A DNA stretch of 14,084 bases, taken from positions 1 to 14,084 of the IMG/VR virus record IMGVR_UViG_2541047837_000006; one strand, written 5' to 3'. This document shows, piece after piece, positions 3,068 to 14,084 of the stretch. The position numbers and the translations under genes were made by a program. Under the pieces are notes generated by a model. That model worked only from the letters and a program-made list of their open reading frames with translations, was not told where the DNA came from and searched no databases. Positions within the stretch are counted from its first letter, which is position 1. Each line of letters starts with the position of its first letter. Origin of the DNA: a virus (taxonomy: Duplodnaviria > Heunggongvirae > Uroviricota > Caudoviricetes).

Positions 3068-3179
3068 AACTGAAGTTGCCCTGAAAATGAAATTTTTTTG
3101 CACAACCGCAGAACTTTTCCGCAGGGCATCAGTCTTAATTAGTGCCACTGCTTTTCTTTGATGTCCCCATTTTGTGGAG

Positions 3180-3222
3180 CCCATCAACCCCGCCATTTCG
3201 GTTCAAGGTTGATGGGTTTTTT
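3180..3222 (+). terminator. Rho-independent terminator downstream of ybjL
   Basis: Stem cccatcaacc (3180-3189) / ggttgatggg (3207-3216) followed by TTTTTT (3217-3222). Confidence 0.55.
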
Positions 3223-3302
3223 GTTGCCTGAAATTTATACCGTTTAAAATCATGATGTTAGAAGAACTGTTTTTTAACGATGGCGACAAAATGGCGGCAG
3301 CG

Positions 3303-3521
3303 TCAAAGAGAGAGCGCCACCTGCCCTGATTTCATTGGATGCGGCTGAACCGGATTTGACTCTTTTGGCGTTGCAATCGAACGAACAAAAGTTTCATGAG
3401 TAACAAAAGTATGGCTGCAGTTAATGTTCTGGCACTGGTTGTAACGCTCTTTGGTCAATGAAGATACCTGAAAACTGCTGCGAGTATGGGCGGCACTTCC
3501 ACACAGTGGGCAAATCATCAT
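3303..3521 (-). CDS. ogr: Ogr/Delta-family zinc-finger late transcription activator
   Basis: 72-aa product from ATG at 3521 (SD-like GGGGAGAA upstream); C-x2-C-x22-C-x4-C motif (CPLC ... CQNINC). The ORF is open to a GTG at 3554, so the start is uncertain. Confidence 0.85.
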   Translation of the reverse strand: MMICPLCGSAAHTRSSFQVSSLTKERYNQCQNINCSHTFVTHETFVRSIATPKESNPVQPHPMKSGQVALSL

Positions 3522-3611
3522 TTTTCGAGTTCTCCCCATTTTTGCTAAATTCACAATAATGATACCGCATTATCCCATTTTGCAAACTTAAAAGTTCTCC
3601 ATTGCGAAGAA

Positions 3612-4880
3612 TCATTCCATTTCGAAATCATCAATCCTCACTTCAAGCTCCAGACTGGTCGTAAAACCATTATCCGGGCTGACGGTATGTGTCAGAGTCG
3701 TAATGGTCCATTCCGCATCATCTATCGGCTGTTTAAAGCCACTGACTTTCACTGGCATTTCCGTGTAGAGATCTGCCCGCCCTTCCGCCAGTTGTAGCGA
3801 GAATGACGCAACGCCGCGTTGCAGGCGTTCCCACTGCATTTTCGCCGCTCGTTCAGCGTTGCCCCGGTTGGCATAAGTACGATTAAGTACCAGCACGTTT
3901 TCATCCGTACCCACCAGGTAATCGCCCTGCTTCGCTTCCGGCTCTTTCTTCTGCTTTGCGGTCCTGCGCTTACGCTTCACCGTGGTGCTTTCTTTCTTCG
4001 CGGGTTCGCGGGTATGCAACCAGCTGGCAATTACGCCCGTGTAAGATCCGCGATCTGCCAGGGTAAAGCGGTGACTGTCGCCGTCCTTACGTGTGATAGT
4101 GATCACCGGCAGTGGTTTACCGCTGGCGCTTTTACCCTGTCCCTGCCGAATGAATAACAGATTGCCATTTTTCACCGACGCAATAGCACCGTACTGGCGC
4201 GCCAGCCGCATCAGAAAACTGCCGTCACTCTCATTAGTCTGGTCTATATGTTCCACGGGTTTATCTGACAGGTCTTTACCCAGTGCCATCTTCAGCTTGT
4301 GACGCGCGGCTATTTCCTTCACCACTTCCCCAACTGTGGTCTTGTGCCACGATTTTTCACGGCGGGTATTCAGCGTTTCCCGAAAATCAGCACTTCGCGC
4401 CCGGACACCGTCCACAATTTCCACCATGTTGATAAGGTCCACTTCGTAGAGCACCTCACCATTGATGGTCAGCTTCGCGTAGCTGTTGGTACTGGTCACT
4501 TTGGTGGTGTTGCTTTCGCCCGTCTTCCACTCGCCGGAATCCACTTCTTTGTGACGTCCACGCACCACAAGCTCCACGGCCTGCACTTCCCCGGTATCGT
4601 CACGCTGGATAGAGCCGGTAAAGCGCAGCTGGATGCCATCCACCGTAGCTTTGCCCATCTGCTTAAACAGCAGCAGCTCAGTACCGCCAATGGAAAATTC
4701 AGTATCCAGTGCGCCGTCATCCAGTCCCAGATCCACATCCACCGCCCCCGGCATACCGCCGCCGCGATACTTCTCATATTTGCGGGTGAATTTCGGCAGC
4801 GTCAGCGACTCTACGATCCCCTGCCAGTTGTTCCCGTCGTTAAACAGGTTCAGATGTTTTAATTTACGTGGTAAAGCCAT
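3612..4880 (-). CDS. Chimeric ORF: tail tube FII-like N-terminus (~155 aa) fused in frame to tail protein D-like C-terminus (~265 aa); probable deletion product
   Basis: N-terminus MALPRKLKHLNLFNDG resembles P2 FII tail tube; C-terminus resembles the gpD family and sits directly upstream of ogr as D does in P2. The genes expected between FII and D (E, E', T, U) are absent. Confidence 0.65.
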   Translation of the reverse strand: MALPRKLKHLNLFNDGNNWQGIVESLTLPKFTRKYEKYRGGGMPGAVDVDLGLDDGALDTEFSIGGTELLLFKQMGKATVDGIQLRFTGSIQRDDTGEVQAVELVVRGRHKEVDSGEWKTGESNTTKVTSTNSYAKLTINGEVLYEVDLINMVEIVDGVRARSADFRETLNTRREKSWHKTTVGEVVKEIAARHKLKMALGKDLSDKPVEHIDQTNESDGSFLMRLARQYGAIASVKNGNLLFIRQGQGKSASGKPLPVITITRKDGDSHRFTLADRGSYTGVIASWLHTREPAKKESTTVKRKRRTAKQKKEPEAKQGDYLVGTDENVLVLNRTYANRGNAERAAKMQWERLQRGVASFSLQLAEGRADLYTEMPVKVSGFKQPIDDAEWTITTLTHTVSPDNGFTTSLELEVRIDDFEME

Positions 4881-4889
4881 GTTGCCCCC

Positions 4890-6062
4890 TTACGCGCTTA
4901 CCTGGCTGGAGAAATTCACCAGGTACTGATCGGTGATGCGCTGACGCAGCATCAGGTTTTCAAGTGGCGGTACTGGCGTGTAGTCGTAATCGATGGTGAG
5001 TTTTCCGGCTTTCAGCGTGTCTTTATCGTTCACCGACTCGTCCAGCCAGCAATCACCACCAATGAGATAGCCCTGACTGACCAGGCTGCGCATTTTGGCG
5101 CGAATACCTTCGATAATGTCGCGGGCCAGCGACGGGTTCAGCGGTTTGTCCACCGCCCACATATGCGCTTCTGCCATCGTGTCCATCAGTACCTGCGCCG
5201 TGCGGGTGTAGTTTTCGAAGGCAAAGAGCGGGTCATCACTCAGGCAGCGGGAACCCCAGAAGCGGAAACCGTCTTTGCGGATAAGCGTGGTGACGTCGTT
5301 CTGGTTAAGCAGTCCCGCATCGGTTGCCGGGTCCTGCAGATCCCAGAACACATCAGCAGAAATTCCGGTGACACCGTTCACGCCTACGTTGGACAGGCTC
5401 TTGTGCCACCCGGTCTGCTCATCAATTTTGGCGCGCAGACCGAGCGCACGGGCGGTGGCATATGCCGTTGCTTCGGCATTCAGCACCGTGTCCCAGCCAG
5501 TAAAGTCAGGCCAGATCAGCATCCCTTCGCGCTGACTGAAGTTTTCACGGTAAGTGATCGCCTCCTGCACTGTCTTGCAGCCATACGCTGACAGGTAAGC
5601 AAACCCGCGCAGGCTTTGCGCCACACTCAGCAGCTCAGTCGCAACGGCTTTGTTATCGTGACCCGGCACGCCGAGAATGCGCGGTTTAACGCCGAGCTGT
5701 GACTGGGCAGATAACAGGGCTTTCATACCTGTTTTTTTACCCTCGGCGGTCACTGCGCCAATGATATTGGTTGTGGTTTCTTCTTCCGTTTCACCCTGCG
5801 GCACACGCACAACAACGGTCACGGGTTTTGCCTGGTCAGCGATGGCATCCAGCGAACGGGCCAGCGTGCCGGACTCACCCGCTTTACCGCTGGCAGTCAG
5901 CACATCAGTGATCAGCACGGGTTTATTAAGAGGAAACATTTTTGCATCGGCATCATCGCCCGTGCAGACCATGCCCACGATGGCGGTGCTCACCGTGGTA
6001 ATGGATCGGGTGCCTTCGTTGACTTCAACAACGCGCACTCCGTGGTGGTAATCCTGAGCCAT
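4890..6062 (-). CDS. FI: Contractile tail sheath protein FI
   Basis: 390-aa product; N-terminus [19 protein letters not shown] and C-terminal region [13 protein letters not shown] match P2 FI as I recall it; immediately upstream of the FII-like ORF. Confidence 0.9.
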
Positions 6063-6084
6063 AAGGCAGTCTCTCCGGTTGTAG

Positions 6085-6160
6085 AGGGGGTCTGCCTATG
6101 TTCTGGTTGATACGCGCAGGGTGCACGCGATGGGGATTGTATGGGAAATGGCACAACAGC
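6085..6160 (-). promoter_or_regulatory. Putative Ogr-dependent late promoter pF (dyad TGT-N12-ACA at 6138-6155)
   Basis: TGT (6138-6140), 12-nt spacer, ACA (6153-6155); dyad centre about 85 nt upstream of the FI ATG, consistent with a -55 activator site and ~30-nt leader. Confidence 0.5.
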
Positions 6161-6275
6161 GCCATGAGGGCTTTTCATAAAATAATCAATATATCTCAAT
6201 ATGTATTGATTATTATACGCAAATCTATTTTACTATTGCGCATCTGTCATCCATTTAAATCAGATTGAATACTAT

Positions 6276-7307
6276 ATGAAAAGAGATATTTCTTTAGACC
6301 TGTTACGTATTATTTGTTGTATTTTTGTAATAGGAATTCATGTCACGCCCGACTATGCTTATACTGTTACCAGTAACCAAACAGAAAGTATACAAATACA
6401 AACTCTTTTTGCACAATCAATTGTACGCATTGGTTTACCAATATTCTTTATGTTAAGTGGATACTACCTACTCAACAGACAAAATAGCACTCCACTTTTG
6501 TTTTATAAAAAAAGAATCCCCGCCATTATTATCCCTTTTGTAATATATTCATTAGCACATTACTATATTATTAGCTGGAATAATGGAACGTCATCGAATT
6601 TACTTGAATATTTCTCATTAATATCTAAAAGCACTATTTCACTCTCTGTGCATTTCTGGTTTGTTTATGCCTTTATCGGTTTGTATTTAACCGCTCCAGC
6701 AATTCAATACATAGTCAATAAAATCCCACAAGCCGACAGCCTTAAGGTGATTATAGTTTTGGCTTTCATTTTTTATTATTCATTATACTCATACTCTCTA
6801 AGCCAATCCTCTCAATACTACCATCATTTAATCCCATTACAGAGCATAGATACATGGGTTTTATATTTTGTTGTCGGCGGATTATTAAAAAGAGTTGACA
6901 TTAAAACACATTATATTGTATATAGCATCCCTTTTATATTTTTACTACATGTGATGTTTGTTTATTTTAGCGTTAACAAATATAACTTTAACATATACCC
7001 ATTTGACTCAGGGATTAATATGTTGTTAATGTGTTCCTTGATAGTAATTGCATTTACAAAAATAAACATCAATAATAAAAAAATAATTTTAATCATTGAA
7101 AAAATAGCACCTCTGACATACGGAATTTATTTAATTCATGTTTGTGTTTTCAGAGTCTTAGAGAAATATTTCAATATTCCTTTTATCGTGGACAACATTT
7201 TACTAAAAACAACATCCCTGTCTTTAGTCATTTTTTTTATCAGCCTTGGTTTAAGCTTGATTATTGATCGGTTGTTTGTTAATCCAATTCTCAGACTGAA
7301 TCGTTAA
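6276..7307 (+). CDS. Acyltransferase-3 family integral membrane protein (Oac/OafA-like acyltransferase); prophage cargo gene
   Basis: 343 aa, highly hydrophobic with multiple predicted TM segments; N-terminal LDLLRIICCIFVIGIHV resembles the family signature; strongly AT-rich; occupies the position of Z/fun in P2. Confidence 0.72.
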   Translation: MKRDISLDLLRIICCIFVIGIHVTPDYAYTVTSNQTESIQIQTLFAQSIVRIGLPIFFMLSGYYLLNRQNSTPLLFYKKRIPAIIIPFVIYSLAHYYIISWNNGTSSNLLEYFSLISKSTISLSVHFWFVYAFIGLYLTAPAIQYIVNKIPQADSLKVIIVLAFIFYYSLYSYSLSQSSQYYHHLIPLQSIDTWVLYFVVGGLLKRVDIKTHYIVYSIPFIFLLHVMFVYFSVNKYNFNIYPFDSGINMLLMCSLIVIAFTKININNKKIILIIEKIAPLTYGIYLIHVCVFRVLEKYFNIPFIVDNILLKTTSLSLVIFFISLGLSLIIDRLFVNPILRLNR

Positions 7308-7767
7308 ATGGCTTAGTCGGAAAGGCTGTATCAGAGGCTTTTGATGGATCAATAGCCTCTAATGCTTCAATATAATCAAGCCATATGTTATACATTTCCA
7401 GTTCAGTAGCATTCAGTCTCCCAAGCAATGCTTTCCCCTGCCATTGTTTGTTATTTATATAATTTACAGCTTCTATTATACGTGCTTGTTTTTCAGTTTT
7501 TGCTTTAGCCACTAACTCTGTATATGTGAGTGGTGGCGTATCAATCCATGCAGGCATACCATTATCATCTGCCCCAAGAATTTTTCCTTCCGGAGGTTGT
7601 TTCATGAATTCACAAGCAGTCTCATTTGAAATATCCACCCCTTCCTTAGGCCACATTCCATTTCTTTCATATTCATTTTTTAATATATACGCCATAAATC
7701 TGGCATTTACCTTATCCCATATGAAATCATAAGAAGAATCATGTTGATAATCATCACAACTTTTCAT
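7291..7767 (-). CDS. Tail fibre assembly chaperone (Tfa / gpG-like)
   Basis: 158-aa ORF starting 2 nt after the H stop; soluble protein with a C-terminal region resembling Tfa proteins; AT-rich like the 3' end of H. Confidence 0.6.
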   Translation of the reverse strand: MKSCDDYQHDSSYDFIWDKVNARFMAYILKNEYERNGMWPKEGVDISNETACEFMKQPPEGKILGADDNGMPAWIDTPPLTYTELVAKAKTEKQARIIEAVNYINNKQWQGKALLGRLNATELEMYNIWLDYIEALEAIDPSKASDTAFPTKPFNDSV

Positions 7768-7769
7768 AT

Positions 7770-9209
7770 TTAATATCCAAATGCAATAAATACAGCGCCT
7801 GAAACTTTTGAATCACTGCTGGTTCCTGATGTCAAACAAGTTACAGCAGTAAACCCATCATTATATATACTTTCGCACGACGTAACGACTTGTGCATATG
7901 TCATTTTTGTGACAAACACACCCCATACTCCGTTAGGGAATGGCGTTGGATATGTAATAGGAAGCTGTTGTGGAATACCAATAGTTGTACTATTAGGAAG
8001 ATTTCTTCGAAATATTTGTATAATTAAACCATTCGGACCTTTAACCAACAAATTATCGCTTCCTTTTCCTGTTAGCTGAAAATAGCTCATGTCAGGGATT
8101 TCATAACTATTAGCATTACCAACATTTCTACCTGCCGCATTTCCCAAATGCCCTAAACCAAGATAAGTAAGAATTCCTTCTATATCCTTTCCACTCAAAT
8201 TAGTCAGCGTATTATCCAGCGGTTGTTTGCCTGCCAGCGCATTAAGCATTGTCGTGGCAAAGTTCGGGTCATTCCCCAGCGCCGCCGCCAGTTCGTTCAG
8301 TGTATCCAGTGCCGCAGGTGCAGACCCCACCATTGCTGCAATTGCCGATTTCACAAAAGCTGTAGTGGCAATCTGTGTATTGTTGACCGACTGCGCCGCC
8401 GTGGGGGCTGTTGGCGTTCCGGTGAGTGCCGGACTCGACAACGGTGCTTTTAGTGCCAGCACATTGTTAATGGTGGTACTGAAATTCGGATCATTGTTAA
8501 TGGCTGCGGCTATTTCTTTCAGCGTGTCCAGCGTGGCTGGCGCACCATTAATAAGGGCCGTCAGTGCCGCCTGAACAAACGCAGTGGTCGCAACCTGCGT
8601 GGTATTATTCCCCGCCGCTGGCGTTGGCGCTTTGGGGGTTCCGGTAAACGTCGGACTTTCTTTGGGTGCATACTGTGAATGTGGGTCCTGTGCGGCAAGG
8701 TGTTTTGCCATCAGGTCATCCACATACACCTTCAGCTCCAGTACCTTGTCATCCACATACTTGCGGGTTGCCAGCACTACAGCAGGATCGATTTTCAGGG
8801 TGATATTTTCCGTGCTGCTGGTAATCAGCACCATGCGCACGGTCTGGGTGCGCCCGCTGCCTTCAGCCAGTTGCGGCTTATAGCTTTCCGGGCAGTTGCC
8901 CACGGCAATCAATGCCCCGGACTCATCAAACAGGCCCACTTCACGTATCCACCAACCTCCCTCGTTTTCAGGGATCACCTGTTCGGCAATAATCTGGCTG
9001 CTGTTCTGCGGGTCGATATAGAGCATATTCAGCGCAGCCCGGCGTTTCTCATTTACCAGTGCCGTCTGCTTTGCGTCCGGCGTTGGCAATGTTCCGCCGC
9101 CATCGCCGACCGCCATATGGGTAATTTTTAAAGGCACACCGAGCGCGGCGGCGCTGGCAAGTTTCGCCGCGCCAATATCCGTCAGCAGGGTATAAAATTT
9201 TGTGCTCAT
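7770..9209 (-). CDS. H: Tail fibre protein H with conserved N-terminus and divergent C-terminal receptor-binding region
   Basis: N-terminus MSTKFYTLLTDIGAAKLA ... MAVGDGGG ... ESYKPQLAEGSGR resembles P2 gpH; internal repeats contain the NELAAALGNDPNF motif; C-terminal ~160 aa unrelated and AT-rich. Confidence 0.85.
   Translation of the reverse strand: MSTKFYTLLTDIGAAKLASAAALGVPLKITHMAVGDGGGTLPTPDAKQTALVNEKRRAALNMLYIDPQNSSQIIAEQVIPENEGGWWIREVGLFDESGALIAVGNCPESYKPQLAEGSGRTQTVRMVLITSSTENITLKIDPAVVLATRKYVDDKVLELKVYVDDLMAKHLAAQDPHSQYAPKESPTFTGTPKAPTPAAGNNTTQVATTAFVQAALTALINGAPATLDTLKEIAAAINNDPNFSTTINNVLALKAPLSSPALTGTPTAPTAAQSVNNTQIATTAFVKSAIAAMVGSAPAALDTLNELAAALGNDPNFATTMLNALAGKQPLDNTLTNLSGKDIEGILTYLGLGHLGNAAGRNVGNANSYEIPDMSYFQLTGKGSDNLLVKGPNGLIIQIFRRNLPNSTTIGIPQQLPITYPTPFPNGVWGVFVTKMTYAQVVTSCESIYNDGFTAVTCLTSGTSSDSKVSGAVFIAFGY
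8230..8700. repeat. Diverged tandem duplication (~230 bp unit) inside tail fibre gene H
   Basis: Two protein-level repeats (ATTAFV...ALDTL.E.AAA...DPNF.TT) and corresponding DNA similarity, e.g. gttccggtgagtgccgg versus gttccggtaaacgtcgg; boundaries approximate. Confidence 0.55.
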
Positions 9210-9811
9210 GGATTCACTCTCATTGTGTCAATAACATGGACCGCCCCGCCTTCATGCGCGGTGCCGCCGGAAATAATTGTTTCGTTGATATACGGATAGA
9301 TCGTGATTTCTTCACCAAGATAGCTGGCGGCTCCCACCCAATGCGGGCCGCTGGTCTGCAGATTGATGGACATGCCGATCATGTGACGGCTACATGGTTT
9401 GGCATCGCTTATCAGCCGCTCAAGCTCCAGATAGGTATCTTCAGTGATGCCCTGGTCCTGCACACCAATGTCCAGGCGAAACGTACCCGGTGTTTCTCCG
9501 GTCTGCCACCACTCAATAATGCGGATCAGGAAGCCGAACGGCTCCACCACCCGCCGCACGGCACTGGTGGTTCCTTTATGCTGATGAATATAAAAAGCAT
9601 CCTTCACCACCTGTCGTTTGACGCTTTCCGTCCAGCCCTCGTCCCAGCGATCCACAGAGAACGCCCAGGCGAGATAAGGCAGGAAACTGATCGGACAGGT
9701 CGTTGGATTCCACAAGTCACGCAGCGGCACCTGCAGATCAGAAATCCCGCTGCAGGTTTGCGCCAGTCGGCGCTCCAGTGGCGTTGAACCCGGTGGCAGC
9801 AGACTATTCAT
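9206..9811 (-). CDS. I: Baseplate/tail protein I
   Basis: 201-aa product with the motif LRDLWNPTTCP ... LAWAFSVDRWDE ... GTFRLDIGV ... DAKPCSRHMIG resembling P2 gpI; start overlaps the preceding J' stop and its stop overlaps the H start. Confidence 0.8.
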   Translation of the reverse strand: MNSLLPPGSTPLERRLAQTCSGISDLQVPLRDLWNPTTCPISFLPYLAWAFSVDRWDEGWTESVKRQVVKDAFYIHQHKGTTSAVRRVVEPFGFLIRIIEWWQTGETPGTFRLDIGVQDQGITEDTYLELERLISDAKPCSRHMIGMSINLQTSGPHWVGAASYLGEEITIYPYINETIISGGTAHEGGAVHVIDTMRVNP

Positions 9812-10034
9812 CCGTTCCTCCGTTGGTTACGCTCCACTGCGTACATGATGCCGCCTGTGTTTTGTTCAGGACCACATCCGCCAGAGGAGAAGCCAGCTCC
9901 ACACGCTGCACACCCTCAACATGCAGGGCGGCAAAGATGGCGCTACGGCGAATATCCCGACCAAGACGCGTCTGACTGGCGATGTACTTCTGCAGGCTGG
10001 CTTTTGCCGCTGCCATTACCGGCTCTGCTTCCGG
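9804..10034 (-). pseudogene. J: Baseplate protein J, C-terminal ~70-aa fragment
   Basis: Translation AKASLQKYIASQTRLGRDIRRSAIFAALHVEGVQRVEL resembles the gpJ C-terminus; the frame is closed by a stop at 10035-10037, so the N-terminal ~230 aa are absent. Confidence 0.6.
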
Positions 10035-10375
10035 TCAGCGAACTTCGGGCTGACTTCCATAGAGGTGAATAATTTCTGGCCTTTTTTCACCAGTTCCACC
10101 AGGGACTCCGTTGGCTCAACGTCGGCATACAGCGCCATCTTGCCTGCCAGCGGACCTTCCGTGATTTCTTCAGCAAACAGCGCCGTCACCTTGCCGTAGC
10201 GGTTAAAGGTGCTGTCCGGCAGATAAGACTTGATGTGCTCAAGGTTAATCAGCGCGGTATACACCGCCGGGTTGTAGCTGGCTGCCATCTGTTCCAGCCA
10301 TTCTCGCTGGATTTCGCGTCCGTCGGTGGTGGCACCTTCCACCCCGATGCGAAAACGCTTTGCTTTCACTGTCAT
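10016..10375 (-). pseudogene. O: Capsid scaffold protein O, N-terminal ~110-aa fragment
   Basis: Translation FRIGVEGATTDGREIQ ... INLEHIK ... TSMEVSPKFA resembles the gpO N-terminus; ORF ends after 119 aa versus ~280 aa for intact O. Confidence 0.65.
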
Positions 10376-10399
10376 GAGCCGTGCTCCGTTAGAAAAAAC

Positions 10400-10475
10400 T
10401 TACTGGAGCCTTATGGTTGCGGTGATGGGGGCAGTGAAACAATGCGCGGTATTTGTACCGACAACCACACAAACC
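10400..10475 (-). promoter_or_regulatory. Putative Ogr-dependent late promoter pO (dyad TGT-N12-ACA at 10454-10471)
   Basis: TGT (10454-10456), 12-nt spacer, ACA (10469-10471); dyad centre ~87 nt upstream of the O' ATG, the same spacing as the FI dyad. Confidence 0.5.
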
Positions 10476-10517
10476 GCAGGCGGGGAAAGCCTTCATTCAA
10501 GGCTGTAGGTTTGTGCC

Positions 10518-11372
10518 ATGAACACCACACTGACACCCGCAGATCTCGATCCCCGTCGGCAGGCCATGCTGCTGTACTTTCAGGGATACCGCGTAGCCCG
10601 CATTGCTGAAATGCTGGGCGAGAAAGTTGCAACCGTTCACAGCTGGAAAAAACGCGACAAGTGGGGTGACTATGGGCCGCTGGATCAGATGCAGCTCACC
10701 ACCGCCGCACGCTACTGCCAGCTCATCATGAAGGAGCACAAAGAAGGGAAAGATTTCAAAGAGATTGACCTGCTGGCGCGCCAGTCTGAGCGCCACGCGC
10801 GGATCGGCAAGTTTAACAATGGCGGCAACGAATCCGACTTAAACCCTAACGTCGCCAACCGCAACAAAGGCCCACGCCGTCAGCCGGAAAAGAATGTTTT
10901 CACCGATGAGCAGATTGAGAAGCTGGAAGAAATCTTCCATTCCTCCATGTTCAACTACCAGCGCCACTGGTGGGAAGCCGGAAAAACCAACCGCATCCGC
11001 AACCTGCTGAAGTCACGCCAGATCGGCGCGACCTTTTACTTTGCCCGTGAAGCCCTGATTGACGCCCTGCTGACCGGACGTAACCAGATTTTCCTTTCCG
11101 CCAGCAAGGCACAGGCCCACGTCTTTAAGCAGTACATCATCGACTTCGCCAAAGAAGTGGAGGTGGAGTTGAAAGGCGATCCGATGGTGCTTCCTAACGG
11201 GGCCACGCTTTACTTCCTCGGCACCAATGCCCGCACTGCCCAGAGTTATCACGGCAACCTGTATCTGGATGAATATTTCTGGATACCGAAATTCCAGGAG
11301 CTGCGCAAAGTGGCTTCCGGTACCGCACCTGCAGCAACACGCCCGATCTCTGCGGTTGCACTCATGACGTAA
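10518..11372 (+). pseudogene. P: Terminase large subunit P, N-terminal ~268-aa fragment
   Basis: Translation ...[15 protein letters not shown] ... [12 protein letters not shown] ... [15 protein letters not shown] ... [15 protein letters not shown] resembles the gpP N-terminus; similarity ends near 11321 and the ORF stops at 11372 versus ~590 aa for intact P. Confidence 0.8.
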
Positions 11373-11662
11373 TGTGGCAGTTTCTCTTTTGCCACCTCAT
11401 TAATTGGTACGCATGGCAGGCAGTGAATCTGTGCCAGAAAACCATCTACCAACGTTGAATCTTCAGTCAGATCGGTAAGCAGCCAGATTTCTGGTGCGGT
11501 TAATAAATGAGGTTGAGCTGGGTTCAGCTTGTTCCGCAGAATCTGCACATTCATGCCCGCACGTTCTGCCAGTTGCACCAGATTGTGGCGCAGTGCGAAT
11601 GCACGACAGGCTTCATCAAAATGTGGATGTTTGGAAACTTGGTAATCAAACATGGTTTTCAA
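11249..11662 (-). pseudogene. 186 CII-like transcription activator, 3'-truncated; ORF tail runs antisense into the P fragment
   Basis: N-terminal ~105 aa with an HTH-like segment ([19 protein letters not shown]) and position downstream of the apl-like gene; the last ~30 codons are the antisense of P coding sequence. Confidence 0.5.
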
Positions 11663-11717
11663 CTCCGAACTTATCGCAAAATCGAACTCAGCGTCTTATT
11701 GCGAAAATAGACGTCTA

Positions 11718-11921
11718 TTAAGCAGACAAAGCATCAACAGTCAGAGCAGCCAGGTTAATCATTACCTTTTCACGTTTTTTGTCTTTACGAAGACGATGAC
11801 GAGGTAGTCGGCCATCAGCCAACATGTCGTTAATCGTATCAATAGAAAGGCCAGTCAGTTCGCTATAACGTTCGATTGTGACATGTGGTGTATTCAGAGT
11901 AATTGAAATGTTAGGTGTCAT
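11718..11921 (-). CDS. Apl/Cox-like small DNA-binding excisionase and switch regulator
   Basis: 67-aa basic ORF, first gene divergent from the repressor and followed by the CII-like gene, the arrangement of the 186 lytic operon; SD-like AAGGA upstream. Confidence 0.6.
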
Positions 11922-12066
11922 AAGGCAACATTCCTTCTAGATATGGCTTGTGGCGAGCCGTTGTTTGTCGTGATTAGTAGTGAAGGCTCCAAAAGAACAC
12001 TTCTGGTTCAACTTTAAGATCGCTTTTGGAATCTGTCAACGAATTTTGGATTTCTTTGGAGGACTT
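11922..12066. promoter_or_regulatory. Putative immunity switch region (lytic and lysogenic promoters with operators) between apl-like and cI-like genes
   Basis: Divergent gene starts; 8-bp perfect inverted repeat tccaaaag (11988-11995) / cttttgga (12023-12030). Promoter elements not individually resolved. Confidence 0.4.
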
Positions 12067-12636
12067 GTGGATTTCAATAGCGGCGGTAAGAAAGCCATAG
12101 AACGTTTAGTTGAAGCATATGGGTTCGGTACCCGTCAGGCTCTCTGTGATCATTTAGGTGTTTCTAAGAGCACCATGGCAACGCGCTATATGCGTGATAT
12201 TTTTCCAGCAGATTGGGTAATCCAGTGCGCCCTTGAAACGGGCACCTCGCTTAATTGGCTAACAACAGGGCATGGTTCAAAGCAAGCATCAGCAAATACA
12301 AATACTATAGAAGTAGAAAAATATTTATTGTCTGATGGAGCATTGCAGAAAGACGGTTTTTATATTTTTGATAAGGGATTTCTACCCTCTACGTTTAAAA
12401 AACCTTTTGTCATCACAGATAACAATTCTGAATTTATTTGTGATAAAGAATTTGATGATATACGTGATGGTAAATGGGTAATAAGTATTGATGGCGAAAT
12501 AACGATCCGTGACATTACTCGTTTACCCGGTGGAAGAATCTTCGTCGAGGGTGGAAACAGAGCCTTCGAATGCAAGATAGAAGACATTGAAATAATTGGT
12601 AAAATTATAAGTTTAACAGTCAAGCATGTTAAATAG
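12067..12636 (+). CDS. 186 CI-type immunity repressor (~189 aa)
   Basis: Divergent from apl and upstream of int; LVEAYGFG N-terminal region and overall length consistent with the 186 CI family. Start set at GTG 12067 (GGAGGA at 12058-12063); the ORF is open to a GTG at 11980, so the start is uncertain. Confidence 0.65.
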   Translation: MDFNSGGKKAIERLVEAYGFGTRQALCDHLGVSKSTMATRYMRDIFPADWVIQCALETGTSLNWLTTGHGSKQASANTNTIEVEKYLLSDGALQKDGFYIFDKGFLPSTFKKPFVITDNNSEFICDKEFDDIRDGKWVISIDGEITIRDITRLPGGRIFVEGGNRAFECKIEDIEIIGKIISLTVKHVK

Positions 12637-12651
12637 TACCGGGAGGAAACT

Positions 12652-12843
12652 ATGCTTGGTAAGGTATTTTTTGTGGTTTTGTCATGTTCTTTGTTATTAA
12701 ACCCACTAACTACCTATGCTAGAAATTATCCCTGCTCAGGGAAAAAGGGAGGTGTTTCTCACTGTACCTCAGATGGCAAATTCGTTTGCAATGATGGAAC
12801 TATTAGTAAATCCAAAAAAATCTGTACTAAAAACTCACGATAA
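12652..12843 (+). CDS. Small secreted or lipid-anchored Cys-rich protein (63-aa precursor) of unknown function
   Basis: Strong SD GGGAGG 6 nt upstream of the ATG; N-terminal signal peptide ([23 protein letters not shown]); basic mature part of ~40 aa with 4 Cys; 15 nt downstream of cI on the same strand; AT-rich. Confidence 0.5.
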
Positions 12844-13031
12844 CTTTTGCTTTTATATCTGCGTCTAAAATAAAAATGAGCCGCAGGTTAACCGCAAAAG
12901 TTACATGCTCACATAGCAAAAAGAATAGCCAACTTCATGATGGCTTCAGTGAGATGTATGGTCGTAGGATTTCATACATTGACACTGGTTATACATACAG
13001 TAAAAATGCTCTCTACTGGAGGGCATTTTTT

Positions 13032-14084
13032 ATGGCAGTACGAAAACTCACCACAGGGAAATGGCTTTGCGAATGTTACCCCGCCGGACGTAGTGGGCGT
13101 CGTGTGCGTAAACAATTCGCCACCAAAGGCGAAGCTCTGGCTTTTGAGCGCCACACGATGGAAGAAACCGAAGCAAAGCCCTGGCTGGGTGAATCAGTGG
13201 ATCGTCGAACACTGAAAGACGTAGTTGAGCTATGGTTCAAACTACATGGTAAATCTCTGACAGCTGGGCAGCATGTCTATGACAAATTGCTGTTGATGGT
13301 TGACGCTCTGGGTAATCCTCTTGCAACCGATCTCACCTCTAAAATGTTTGCCCACTATCGAGATAAACGCCTGACAGGCGAGATCTACTTCAGCGAGAAA
13401 TGGAAGAAAGGAGCAAGCCCGGTCACCATTAACCTGGAGCAAAGCTATCTAAGTAGTGTTTTTAGCGAACTATCCCGTCTGGGCGAATGGTCGTATCCGA
13501 ACCCACTGGAGAACATGCGAAAATTCACCATCGCAGAAAAAGAGATGGCATGGCTTACCCATGAGCAGATTGTTGAATTGCTGGCTGATTGCAAACGTCA
13601 GGACCCAATTCTGGCACTGGTAGTTAAGATATGCTTAAGCACAGGCGCACGCTGGCGTGAAGCCGTAAATCTTACCCGCTCACAGGTGACCAAATACCGA
13701 ATTACCTTTGTCAGAACGGAGGGGAAGAAAAACAGAAGCATCCCTATCAGTAAAGAGCTTTACGAAGAGATCATGGCGCTTGATGGGTTCAATTTCTTTA
13801 CAGACTACTATTTTCAATTTTTATCCGTGATGGAAAAAACGTCTATCGTGCTCCCTCGCGGTCAACTCACACACGTTCTGCGCCATACGTTTGCGGCGCA
13901 CTTCATGATGTCGGGTGGAAACATTCTCGCCTTACAAAAAATTCTCGGACACCACGATATAAAAATGACTATGCGTTACGCACATCTGGCACCAGATCAT
14001 CTGGAAACGGCGCTCCGTTTCAATCCTCTGGCAACGCTGCCAAGTGGCGACAAAGTGGCGGCAGCGGTTGGCATTACCCCGTAA
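13032..14084 (+). CDS. int: Tyrosine recombinase (phage integrase)
   Basis: Catalytic signature present: R in LSTGARWREA, H-x-x-R in HVLRHTFAAH, Y in MTMRYAHL; N-terminal MAVRKLTTGKW typical of this integrase family. The ORF is open from 12876 but the extension is AT-rich and unlike integrase N-termini. Confidence 0.9.
   Translation: MAVRKLTTGKWLCECYPAGRSGRRVRKQFATKGEALAFERHTMEETEAKPWLGESVDRRTLKDVVELWFKLHGKSLTAGQHVYDKLLLMVDALGNPLATDLTSKMFAHYRDKRLTGEIYFSEKWKKGASPVTINLEQSYLSSVFSELSRLGEWSYPNPLENMRKFTIAEKEMAWLTHEQIVELLADCKRQDPILALVVKICLSTGARWREAVNLTRSQVTKYRITFVRTEGKKNRSIPISKELYEEIMALDGFNFFTDYYFQFLSVMEKTSIVLPRGQLTHVLRHTFAAHFMMSGGNILALQKILGHHDIKMTMRYAHLAPDHLETALRFNPLATLPSGDKVAAAVGITP

Follow-up and report, generated by a model that had tools for sequence, protein, structure and literature searches.

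A decayed Fels-2-like P2/186-family prophage remnant at rybB in Escherichia coli, shortened by internal deletions

The small RNA gene rybB has already been published as an attachment site for P2-like and Felsduovirus prophages (PMC3032704; PMC10121019; PMC4048246). For example, defective P2-like prophages at rybB have been described in three E. coli strains, as Rybb*W in W, Rybb*B in B and Rybb*Cr in Crooks (PMC3032704), and defence hotspot #29 corresponds to Felsduovirus prophages integrated in rybB (PMC10121019). An ogr-D' remnant in E. coli K-12 sits at a different sRNA gene, cyaR (Table 2 of PMC3032704). Both the kind of element considered here and its site at rybB are thus already known.

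The window (the whole stretch of DNA analysed, 14,084 nt) is matched along its entire length, at 100% identity, by positions 1311418-1325501 of the E. coli LR-64-2 record NZ_AP027595.1, which is a complete circular chromosome. In this strain ~10.9 kb of P2-family prophage DNA is flanked by ybjL and rcdA; the phage-specific DNA runs from position 3226 to the end of the window (10,859 bp, close to the 10.8 kb of the original prediction), and the entire element measures 10,947 bp from core to core. Its genes (Table 1) were listed by combining PGAP annotation, Pfam and PHROG scans, and a collinear alignment with the intact prophage found at the same site in strain CFT073. Traits of the Fels-2-like P2/186 family (Peduoviridae) are present, including the P2-type late gene order (D..FII-FI, G-H-I-J, and O divergent from P), in which the remnant is collinear with both CFT073 and Fels-2, a 186-type switch in which CI (an HTH plus a C-terminal domain) is divergent from a Cox/Apl-like gene and CII, an att-proximal Ogr/Delta zinc-finger late activator, and a tyrosine integrase beside att, with a flanking direct repeat and an empty site in other strains. 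We place the probability that this element is a decayed Fels-2-like P2/186-family prophage remnant at rybB, shrunk by internal deletions, at about 0.93. It is an ordinary dead remnant, with about two thirds of the genome gone via such deletions. The annotation, the domain scans and the collinearity with CFT073 bear out the original prediction of a heavily decayed P2/186 prophage near ybjL, and its lists of lost and retained functions proved essentially correct when set against PGAP, Pfam/PHROG and the CFT073 alignment. No evidence contradicting this anatomy was encountered.

Table 1. Features of the rybB-site remnant, in window coordinates
Feature	Position	Strand	Basis
rybB sRNA gene, complete	3147..3225	+	Rfam RF00110, 105.3 bits, model 1-79/79; identical to K-12 rybB
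att core ATGGGTTTTTTGTT, ogr-proximal copy	3212..3225	+	direct repeat; four-way alignment
Arm-type repeat TGGCGACAAAATGGCGGCAGCG, ogr-side att arm, putative Int arm-binding site	3281..3302	+	direct repeat
ogr, late-gene activator, intact, 72 aa	3303..3521	-	PF04606, 5e-22; protein accession same as CFT073
FII'::D' in-frame fusion ORF, 422 aa	3612..4880	-	PF04985 at 4-159 and PF05954 at 172-401
Tail sheath FI, intact, 390 aa	4890..6062	-	Pfam sheath domains; full-length 98% identity to CFT073
TGT-N12-ACA dyad upstream of FI	6138..6155	+	position only
Acyltransferase (Acyl_transf_3), 343 aa, about 30% G+C	6276..7307	+	PF01757, 1.9e-40; PHROG 3333, O-acetyltransferase
Tail fibre assembly protein G, intact, 158 aa	7291..7767	-	PF02413; full-length CFT073 match
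Tail fibre H, intact, 479 aa	7770..9209	-	PF12571 and PF21882; full-length CFT073 match
Baseplate/tail protein I, intact, 201 aa	9206..9811	-	PF09684; full-length CFT073 match
J' fragment, C-terminal 76 aa of baseplate protein	9804..10034	-	PGAP pseudogene
O' fragment, N-terminal 114 aa of capsid scaffold, then out-of-frame tail	10016..10375	-	PF05929, profile 2-111/268
TGT-N12-ACA dyad, divergent O/P promoter region	10454..10471	+	position only; compare P2 pO/pP activator site
P' fragment, N-terminal about 270 aa of large terminase	10518..11322	+	PF06056 and PF03237, partial
cII' fragment, N-terminal 111/169 aa	11321..11653	-	PF06892, profile 1-111/146
Apl/Cox-like excisionase-repressor, intact, 67 aa	11718..11921	-	PHROG 575, 1e-29
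Divergent switch region apl-like/cI, putative pR/pL equivalent	11922..12066		position by analogy with 186
186-type CI repressor, intact, 189 aa	12067..12636	+	PF07022 and PF16452
YdcA-family ORF, 63 aa, between cI and int	12652..12843	+	NF007463, 115.8 bits; PHROG 6000
Tyrosine integrase, 350 aa, native full-length form	13032..14084	+	PF24624 and PF00589
Arm-type repeat, second copy, int-side att arm, within int 3' end	14045..14066	+	direct repeat

To locate the breakpoints, the remnant was compared with the intact 33-kb CFT073 prophage. The original prediction had proposed mapping each deletion by alignment with the P2 and 186 genomes; the proteins of these phages are only 50-70% identical, too distant for breakpoint mapping, so the CFT073 prophage was used for that purpose and Fels-2 for family placement. 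Strain 52F4 was rejected as a reference because it too carries a deletion, marked by a lysozyme'-fil' junction. The CFT073 prophage serves as a related reference and is not the true ancestor, and its immunity region differs, so that the following lengths are approximate, that of the third deletion most of all: deletion 1 comprises 4387 bp (junction 4405, 1-bp microhomology), deletion 2 comprises 7134 bp (junction 10035/10036, 2-bp microhomology) and deletion 3 comprises 9699 bp (junction 11321/11322, 2-bp microhomology), for a summed loss relative to CFT073 of 21.2 kb. Deletion 1 joins FII to D at the expense of E, E', T and U, including the tape measure; deletion 2 spans J to O and removed baseplate, tail-completion, lysis and capsid genes; and deletion 3, from P to cII, removed the portal gene, cos, the cargo/defence hotspot, the DinI/Tum-like gene, the replication genes and fil. 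All three breakpoints fall within ORFs, and repeat- or IS-mediated deletion was discarded as a mechanism, given that the junctions share only 1-2 bp and carry no IS.

By annotation and CFT073 alignment, the remnant contains no E, E', T, U, W, V, S, R, lysis genes, X, L, M, N, Q or cos, nor any replication genes or DinI/Tum-like gene. It cannot make particles, replicate or be packaged; measured against an inducible, particle-forming prophage, it is short of those 21.2 kb, and FII, D, J, O, P and cII are truncated. The leftover fragments of these six genes had been overlooked in the original prediction, as had the FII'::D' fusion, in which tail tube residues 1-159 are joined to the C-terminal part of gpD. 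Among potential control sites, the TGT-N12-ACA dyad upstream of FI is likely, by analogy with P2, to be an Ogr-dependent PF activator site, its centre being about 85 nt from the FI ATG as compared with about 83 nt in P2. Across the whole window this motif is not enriched (6 found, 4.2 expected by chance), so only the positions of the two sites listed in Table 1 are meaningful.

The attachment site had been described as intergenic, and the hairpin at the phage boundary as the ybjL terminator; both assignments now change. The hairpin is the terminator of rybB (Rfam, 105 bits), and the final 14 nt of this gene form the att core, ATGGGTTTTTTGTT, as indicated by Rfam, the empty site in K-12 and the junction alignment. 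The gene is whole after integration, with the Rfam match ending at the core. This correction places the remnant in a known hotspot that holds related prophages in ~20% of complete E. coli genomes (a rybB-ogr junction is found in 1105 of 5426). The earlier observation that no tRNA lies at the ybjL-proximal boundary holds; a tRNA or tmRNA was considered as the attachment site and dropped when ARAGORN found none in the window, and Rfam then gave rybB. The start coordinate in the original prediction, 3223, lies at the end of rybB, for which the Rfam span is 3147-3225.

The core was delimited by a four-way alignment of the attP of phage KP12, both prophage junctions and K-12 attB, in which the int-side and rybB-side junctions together make up KP12 attP. 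KP12 was taken for attP in place of 'Escherichia phage vB_EcoM-813R9', which was rejected as a free-phage source because its record is a predicted prophage whose sequence takes in the host genes rcdA and ybjJ. The second copy of the 14-bp core lies 75-88 bp past the end of the window (22159-22172 in L001). In addition, the arm-type repeat, read as its reverse complement, is similar to YAYCGCCAYTY, the consensus given for the Int arm sites of 186 in NC_001317, and by this similarity both copies are putative Int-binding sites; in P2, the Int site of the P' arm likewise overlaps the 3' end of int.

The original prediction also held that the remnant keeps its lysogeny module and cargo, which is true in part. 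The 186-type repressor, Apl-like gene and integrase and the acyltransferase cargo gene were all recovered by domain scans and the CFT073 alignment, each at full length, but the truncation of cII leaves the lysogeny module only partly intact, and the Tum/DinI-type gene is gone; as to cargo, the acyltransferase remains, but the AIPR and DarT/DarG defence genes have been lost, although sister remnants retain both. The cII' product is 100% identical to residues 1-111 of CFT073 CII, and CI is 33% identical to 186 CI and 47% identical to CFT073 CI, so its immunity type is predicted from sequence to differ from that of CFT073. The 63-aa YdcA-family ORF is Cys-rich with a hydrophobic N-terminus. Integrases of the same 350-aa form occur in Klebsiella phages KP12 and 4LV2017 (99.4% and 98.9% identity) and in Salmonella and Citrobacter, which led us to reject the idea that this form is a deletion-made fusion; a 343-aa form accompanies an inserted 89-aa ORF. 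The acyltransferase, placed where P2 has Z/fun, is 99.4% identical to the CFT073 copy, and in the sister remnant L021 it is called at only 207 aa. In NCBIfam, neither the acyltransferase nor CI nor the Apl-like protein received a specific name.

These features are best explained by a history in which Campbell recombination between attP and the terminal 14 nt of rybB inserted a Fels-2-like phage, leaving rybB whole, after which a succession of illegitimate internal deletions reduced the prophage from about 32 kb to 10.9 kb. The order of loss would be deletion 1, then 2, then 3, an assumption that rests on the states that exist and on contig counts of 130, 41 and 21. By analogy with 186 and P2, cI, the 63-aa ORF and int would constitute a lysogenic operon, CI would hold the lytic promoter off and could still confer immunity to phages of the same repressor specificity, and the acyltransferase may be expressed independently as a possible surface-modifying conversion gene. 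The same biology predicts that excision should be possible in principle, since the remnant retains int and the apl-like gene together with the two cores and the two arm repeats, and that it should not be SOS-inducible, since the Tum-type anti-repressor is lost. A PCR or long-read product carrying GGTTGATGGGTTTTTTGTTATCTAAAAC would be the mark of excision competence.

The same remnant is found in independent assemblies, with identical copies in 20 or more, and its sisters occupy a nested series of states in which deletion 1 is common to all. At least four or five deletion states carry this same deletion 1: it occurs with a P/Q deletion plus deletion 2, in the same combination with deletion 3, and along two alternative routes. 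For example, L018 and L021 have deletion 2 and lack deletion 3, and E423, L015 and L019 have other deletions. An exact FII'::D' fusion was found in 234 index blocks. LR-64-2 and E423 show 1 mismatch in 17.3 kb, yet their deletions differ. Such near-identical sisters with different nested deletions, together with the shortened acyltransferase call in L021, point to recent and ongoing deletional decay.

This tempo bears directly on the proposal, made in the original prediction, that the element is a domesticated remnant, in which the host would retain the CI/int module, the acyltransferase and perhaps ogr for an immunity or surface benefit while useless genes were purged. Every remaining non-junction ORF is indeed intact, the identical remnant recurs across assemblies, and the acyltransferase is conserved in the intact CFT073 prophage too. 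However, sisters this similar that are differently deleted imply decay too recent for intact ORFs to signal selection, and a single mismatch in 17.3 kb is too little divergence to gauge selection on the kept genes. The useless sheath, H, G, I, FII'::D', O' and P' are as intact as the supposedly useful genes, the acyltransferase itself is called at reduced length in L021, and the AIPR and DarT/DarG cargo, still present in sister remnants, was lost through deletion 3. Domestication is therefore quite unlikely, and the intact ORFs are best read as reflecting lack of time rather than selection, that is, as genes 'not yet hit'. Should essentially every state prove to have retained both the acyltransferase and the cI-orf63-int block, this would indicate real selective retention of an immunity/conversion module.

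It is very improbable that the element is a functional minimal device, either a phage satellite or a tailocin-like contractile structure, instead of debris. It does have int, an excisionase-like gene, a repressor, ogr, the sheath and fibre genes, but all three breakpoints are inside ORFs of the collinear intact prophage, and no tail can form, since the tube is truncated and there is no tape measure, baseplate V/W/J, spike region or gpD N-terminus. Of the parts of a tailocin, only sheath, I, H and G are intact, with T, U, V, W and the lysis genes absent. The ORF and domain inventory likewise contains no replication or primase gene of its own, no cos and no helper-manipulating genes, and the absence of cos, replication genes and any primase means that it cannot act as a P4-type satellite. 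The chance that the deletions arose from collapsed or mis-joined contigs, for which there is no specific support, is negligible: the LR-64-2 sequence is a complete circular chromosome, proteins specific to the junctions recur with exact sequence in 21-130 contigs of independent projects, HVH 209 (2013) among them, and identical 20-kb loci are present in both Logan and NCBI assemblies. The reading as a prophage remnant caught in the course of deletional decay illustrates that a tidy-looking remnant may have arrived at its present form through several recent random deletions and not through domestication. Its significance beyond correct annotation is small; the sister deletion states could be of use in studies of how fast prophages decay, and it is conceivable, if unlikely, that the lineage could serve as a natural time series for the rate and order of such decay.

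Placed beside known systems, the K-12 ogr-D' remnant is likewise of the P2 family, with ogr and a truncated D beside an sRNA-gene attachment site, although the site differs. It is far smaller and is not known to carry int or the repressor. Phage 186 (NC_001317) resembles the remnant in having cI and int on one strand and the apl-like gene and cII on the other, in an arm-type consensus close to the repeat found here, and in integrating at the 3' end of a small RNA gene, with identities of 68% for CII, 54% for Int, 50-70% for structural proteins and only 33% for CI; it differs in integrating in a tRNA-Ile gene and in having neither the 63-aa ORF between cI and int nor the acyltransferase. The closest named phage for structural genes is Fels-2 (NC_010463, Felsduovirus, Salmonella), with amino-acid identities of 87-97% for D', FII', FI, I, J', O', P' and cII', as against 50-70% for the structural proteins of P2 and 186, whereas its integrase (54%), att site and CI (38%) differ, and it has an invertible fibre cassette where the remnant has the acyltransferase. 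Rybb*W, Rybb*B, Rybb*Cr and hotspot #29 share the attachment site, phage group and cargo hotspots, and the three Rybb* prophages are set apart, by their published description, in deletion state and cargo; Rybb*B, for example, carries retron Ec86, whereas the defence hotspot is deleted in the LR-64-2 remnant. The CFT073 prophage (NC_004431.1, about 909-942 kb, between ybjL/rybB and rcdA) retains the 21.2 kb missing here. It also differs in its CI (289 aa) and carries two additional ORFs, one of 323 aa and one of 89 aa; the latter lies between int and attP and reduces Int to 343 aa. This prophage, which we take to be the phi-CFT073-b0847 of the literature, has the same site, orientation, gene order and acyltransferase as the remnant, and is 97-98% identical to it in DNA over ogr to I, O'-P' and int.

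The window is 100% identical to positions 1311418-1325501 of Escherichia coli LR-64-2 (NZ_AP027595.1), and in the RefSeq annotation of this region and its 8-kb flanks the host genes ybjC, grxA, ybjM and ybjL precede the prophage, while rcdA is the first gene past the window end. Between them lie ogr, D and FII pseudogenes, genes for the sheath, an acyltransferase, tail fibre assembly, the tail fibre and protein I, pseudogene fragments of J, O, P and cII and, at the int end, the genes for CI and the integrase, with a hypothetical protein of 63 aa encoded between them and one of 67 aa on the other side of cI. Every assignment is backed by Pfam and PHROG scans, the 67-aa protein being a Cox/Apl-like excisionase-repressor (PHROG 575, 1e-29). 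Therefore, the original prediction was correct in its list of present and missing functions, and the decayed prophage it described is real in all but its attachment site and its domestication.

P2 and 186, whose alignment had been proposed for mapping the deletions, are too distant for this purpose because their proteins are only 50-70% identical; the breakpoint reference was instead the intact-looking ~33-kb prophage found at exactly the same site in E. coli CFT073. Proteins spared by the deletion junctions can be aligned end to end with their CFT073 orthologues (96-100% identity), and the two prophages form collinear blocks interrupted by three gaps (see table), for a loss of 21,220 bp relative to CFT073. 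Junctions 1, 2 and 3 share only 1, 2 and 2 bp, respectively, with both parental sides, and comparison with both parental sequences revealed no insertion sequence at any of them, so these are illegitimate deletions. Deletion 1 happens to preserve the reading frame: the resulting ORF of 422 aa has a tail-tube domain at residues 4-159 and, after it, the C-terminal portion of gpD.

Features of the window and deletion states of related loci
Feature or state	Position in window	Size	Description
RybB	3147-3225		complete sRNA gene
Arm repeat, both att arms	3281-3302; 14045-14066	22 nt	resembles 186 Int arm-site consensus
Deletion 1	junction 4405	4387 bp	FII to D; E, E', T, U lost
Putative Ogr-type dyad	6138-6155		upstream of FI; retained
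Inverted repeat	6172-6223	23 nt	83% complementary, 6-nt loop
Deletion 2	junction 10035/10036	7134 bp	J to O; W, V, S, R, lysis genes, X, L, M, N lost
Putative Ogr-type dyad	10454-10471		between O' and P'; retained
Deletion 3	junction 11321/11322	9699 bp	P to cII; Q, cos, cargo hotspot, DinI/Tum-like gene, A, dam, fil lost
Switch region	11922-12066		predicted rightward promoter
63-aa ORF	12652-12843 (+)		cI-int gap
State: L018, L021			deletion 1, 1.3-kb P/Q deletion, deletion 2; early region, AIPR, DarT/macro-domain genes retained
State: LR-64-2, L017, L020, L022, L009-L011			deletion 1, P/Q deletion, deletions 2 and 3; P/Q junction swallowed by deletion 3
State: L015, L019			deletion 1, P/Q deletion, H' to K' deletion, K' to O/P-region deletion
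State: L016			E423 type

Among complete genomes, deletions 2 and 3 occur in LR-64-2 only. Deletion 1 is common to LR-64-2 and strain E423, which also shares the ogr-to-H block, CI, the 63-aa ORF and Int; E423 has lost another segment, I' to Q', and retains cII, fil, replication genes, a DinI-like gene, DarT with a macro-domain (DarG-like) protein, and an AIPR protein. Exact-sequence look-ups placed the FII'::D' fusion in 130 contigs, O' (the product of deletion 2) in 41 and cII' (that of deletion 3) in 21, HVH 209 included, and identical 20-kb loci are present in independent assemblies. The contexts of the fusion protein, including sister loci from other assemblies (L009-L011, L015-L022), define at least four or five deletion states, all with deletion 1. 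Since these nested states share deletion 1 on a near-identical background, the window appears to be the end state of a recent, branching, multi-step deletion series in one clone.

The original prediction had seen a domesticated remnant that still confers immunity and cargo functions. With so little sequence divergence, however, intact ORFs are uninformative about selection, and genes that would be useless here (sheath, fibre, fusion ORF) are as intact as plausibly useful ones. Together with the different deletions on near-identical sequence (1 mismatch in 17.3 kb between LR-64-2 and E423), these observations speak for ongoing neutral decay rather than domestication.

Other changes are seen among these loci. 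The AIPR-family protein and DarT/macro-domain (DarG-like) pair of E423 (L006 25701-29698), L015, L016 and L018 occupy the equivalent of the P2 old/tin hotspot, gone from LR-64-2 through deletion 3. The acyltransferase call in L021 is just 207 aa long, and in L010 (GCA_949281595.1), a variant of the same remnant, the O'/P' promoter region (~10900-11930) is partially duplicated over ~690 bp. L019 is rearranged beyond its deletions: its remnant abuts rpsL-rpsG-fusA, not the rest of the prophage (CP128440.1, 1-4300), which points to a rearrangement of the chromosome that had one of its ends within the prophage. In strains EC556, EC571 and EC581, the FII-D region has a separate FII'-E'-D' deletion that differs slightly from deletion 1 (the junction query matches at 88.8% identity), so the tape-measure interval was lost more than once in rybB prophages.

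The ybjL-rcdA interval of K-12 contains the sRNA gene rybB, and the complete RybB in the window (Rfam, 105 bits; gathering threshold 40) shows that the hairpin taken for a ybjL terminator is that of rybB. The proposed comparison with a prophage-free genome, the K-12 empty site, located the core: K-12 is identical to the window through 3225, identity resumes 88 bp past the window end, and ATGGGTTTTTTGTT is found at both prophage junctions. In Klebsiella phage KP12, the contiguous int-attP-ogr sequence is that of the int-side junction as far as the core and that of the rybB-side junction from there on. The empty site, repeated core and attP match thus establish textbook Campbell-type integration at the 3'-terminal 14 nt of rybB, which remains intact. 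A site without a tRNA had been predicted correctly (ARAGORN found none in the window), but it is not intergenic. Beyond the 14-bp core, imperfect similarity extends to 27 nt. At the rcdA-side junction of CFT073 (L005), the core is followed by phage-type GCCTGAAATTTAT, and in K-12 and LR-64-2 by ATCTAAAACTTAT; either attB is polymorphic, or the crossover can fall further right, inside an extended core of 27 nt.

The arm repeat reads TGGCGACAAA(A/G)TGGCGGCAGCG, and its int-side copy sits inside the int 3' end, as in P2. Past the window end, between int and the core, AACTTATTGTTTT occurs as two direct repeats whose position suggests that they may be Apl/Cox sites. Int has 350 aa and a C-terminus unlike that of its 343-aa counterparts in CFT073 and 52F4. 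A deletion artefact was rejected, as the same form is found in Klebsiella phages KP12 (99.4% identity) and 4LV2017 (98.9%) and in Salmonella and Citrobacter; this distribution indicates that 350 aa is the native form. In CFT073 (L004/L005) and 52F4 (L002 35165-35514), a ~350-bp cassette with an 89-aa ORF lies between int and attP and takes the place of the last Int residues (compare window 14040-14045); it is missing from LR-64-2, KP12 and 4LV2017, and phage 186 has Orf69 at the position of this ORF.

By analogy with 186 and P2 biology, CI would repress the rightward promoter and hence the apl-like gene, and cI, orf63 and int would form a lysogenic operon. The 63-aa ORF encodes a YdcA-family protein (NF007463, 115.8 bits; PHROG 6000) that is hydrophobic at its N-terminus and contains six cysteines; because 186 and P2 lack it at this position, its role in that operon may be lysogenic conversion as a small secreted protein. 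The acyltransferase gene (low GC, Acyl_transf_3, O-acetyltransferase PHROG), located where P2 has Z/fun, is probably a conversion gene with independent expression. The inverted repeat, in the AT-rich spacer from the FI promoter region to the acyltransferase start, may serve as an operator or as a terminator in both directions. The retained Ogr-type dyads would drive fragments only. Since int, the apl-like gene and both copies of the core and of the arm repeat survive, the element should in principle be able to excise. With the Tum/DinI-type anti-repressor region deleted, it would not be expected to respond to SOS induction, and it would be unable to replicate, to be packaged, as cos is missing, or to assemble a tail.

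Other rybB prophages also vary. In that of 52F4 (L002 22591-23950 and 28531-30051), a DNA invertase with an alternative fibre cassette replaces the acyltransferase, and a SIR2-family gene lies between S and V; this prophage also has a deletion with a lysozyme'-fil' junction. In CFT073 (L004 46273-48126), the repressor has 289 aa and matches the N-terminal domain of the window CI twice, and an additional ORF of 323 aa comes after it; CFT073 thus carries a different immunity module on the same phage backbone.

The rybB attachment site is already known: defective P2-like prophages were described at the "rybB ncRNA" in E. coli W, B and Crooks (PMC3032704), a pan-genome study found only Felsduovirus prophages within rybB at hotspot #29, in 109 genomes (PMC10121019), and a Klebsiella island sits "precisely within the gene for RybB" (PMC4048246). 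The rybB-ogr junction is present in 1105 of the 5426 complete E. coli genomes searched. Because its structural proteins are 87-97% identical to those of Salmonella phage Fels-2, the element can be placed among the Fels-2-like phages of the P2/186 family, with a switch of the 186 type (33% identity to coliphage 186 for CI, 68% for CII and 54% for Int), and it is an ordinary member of an already published class.
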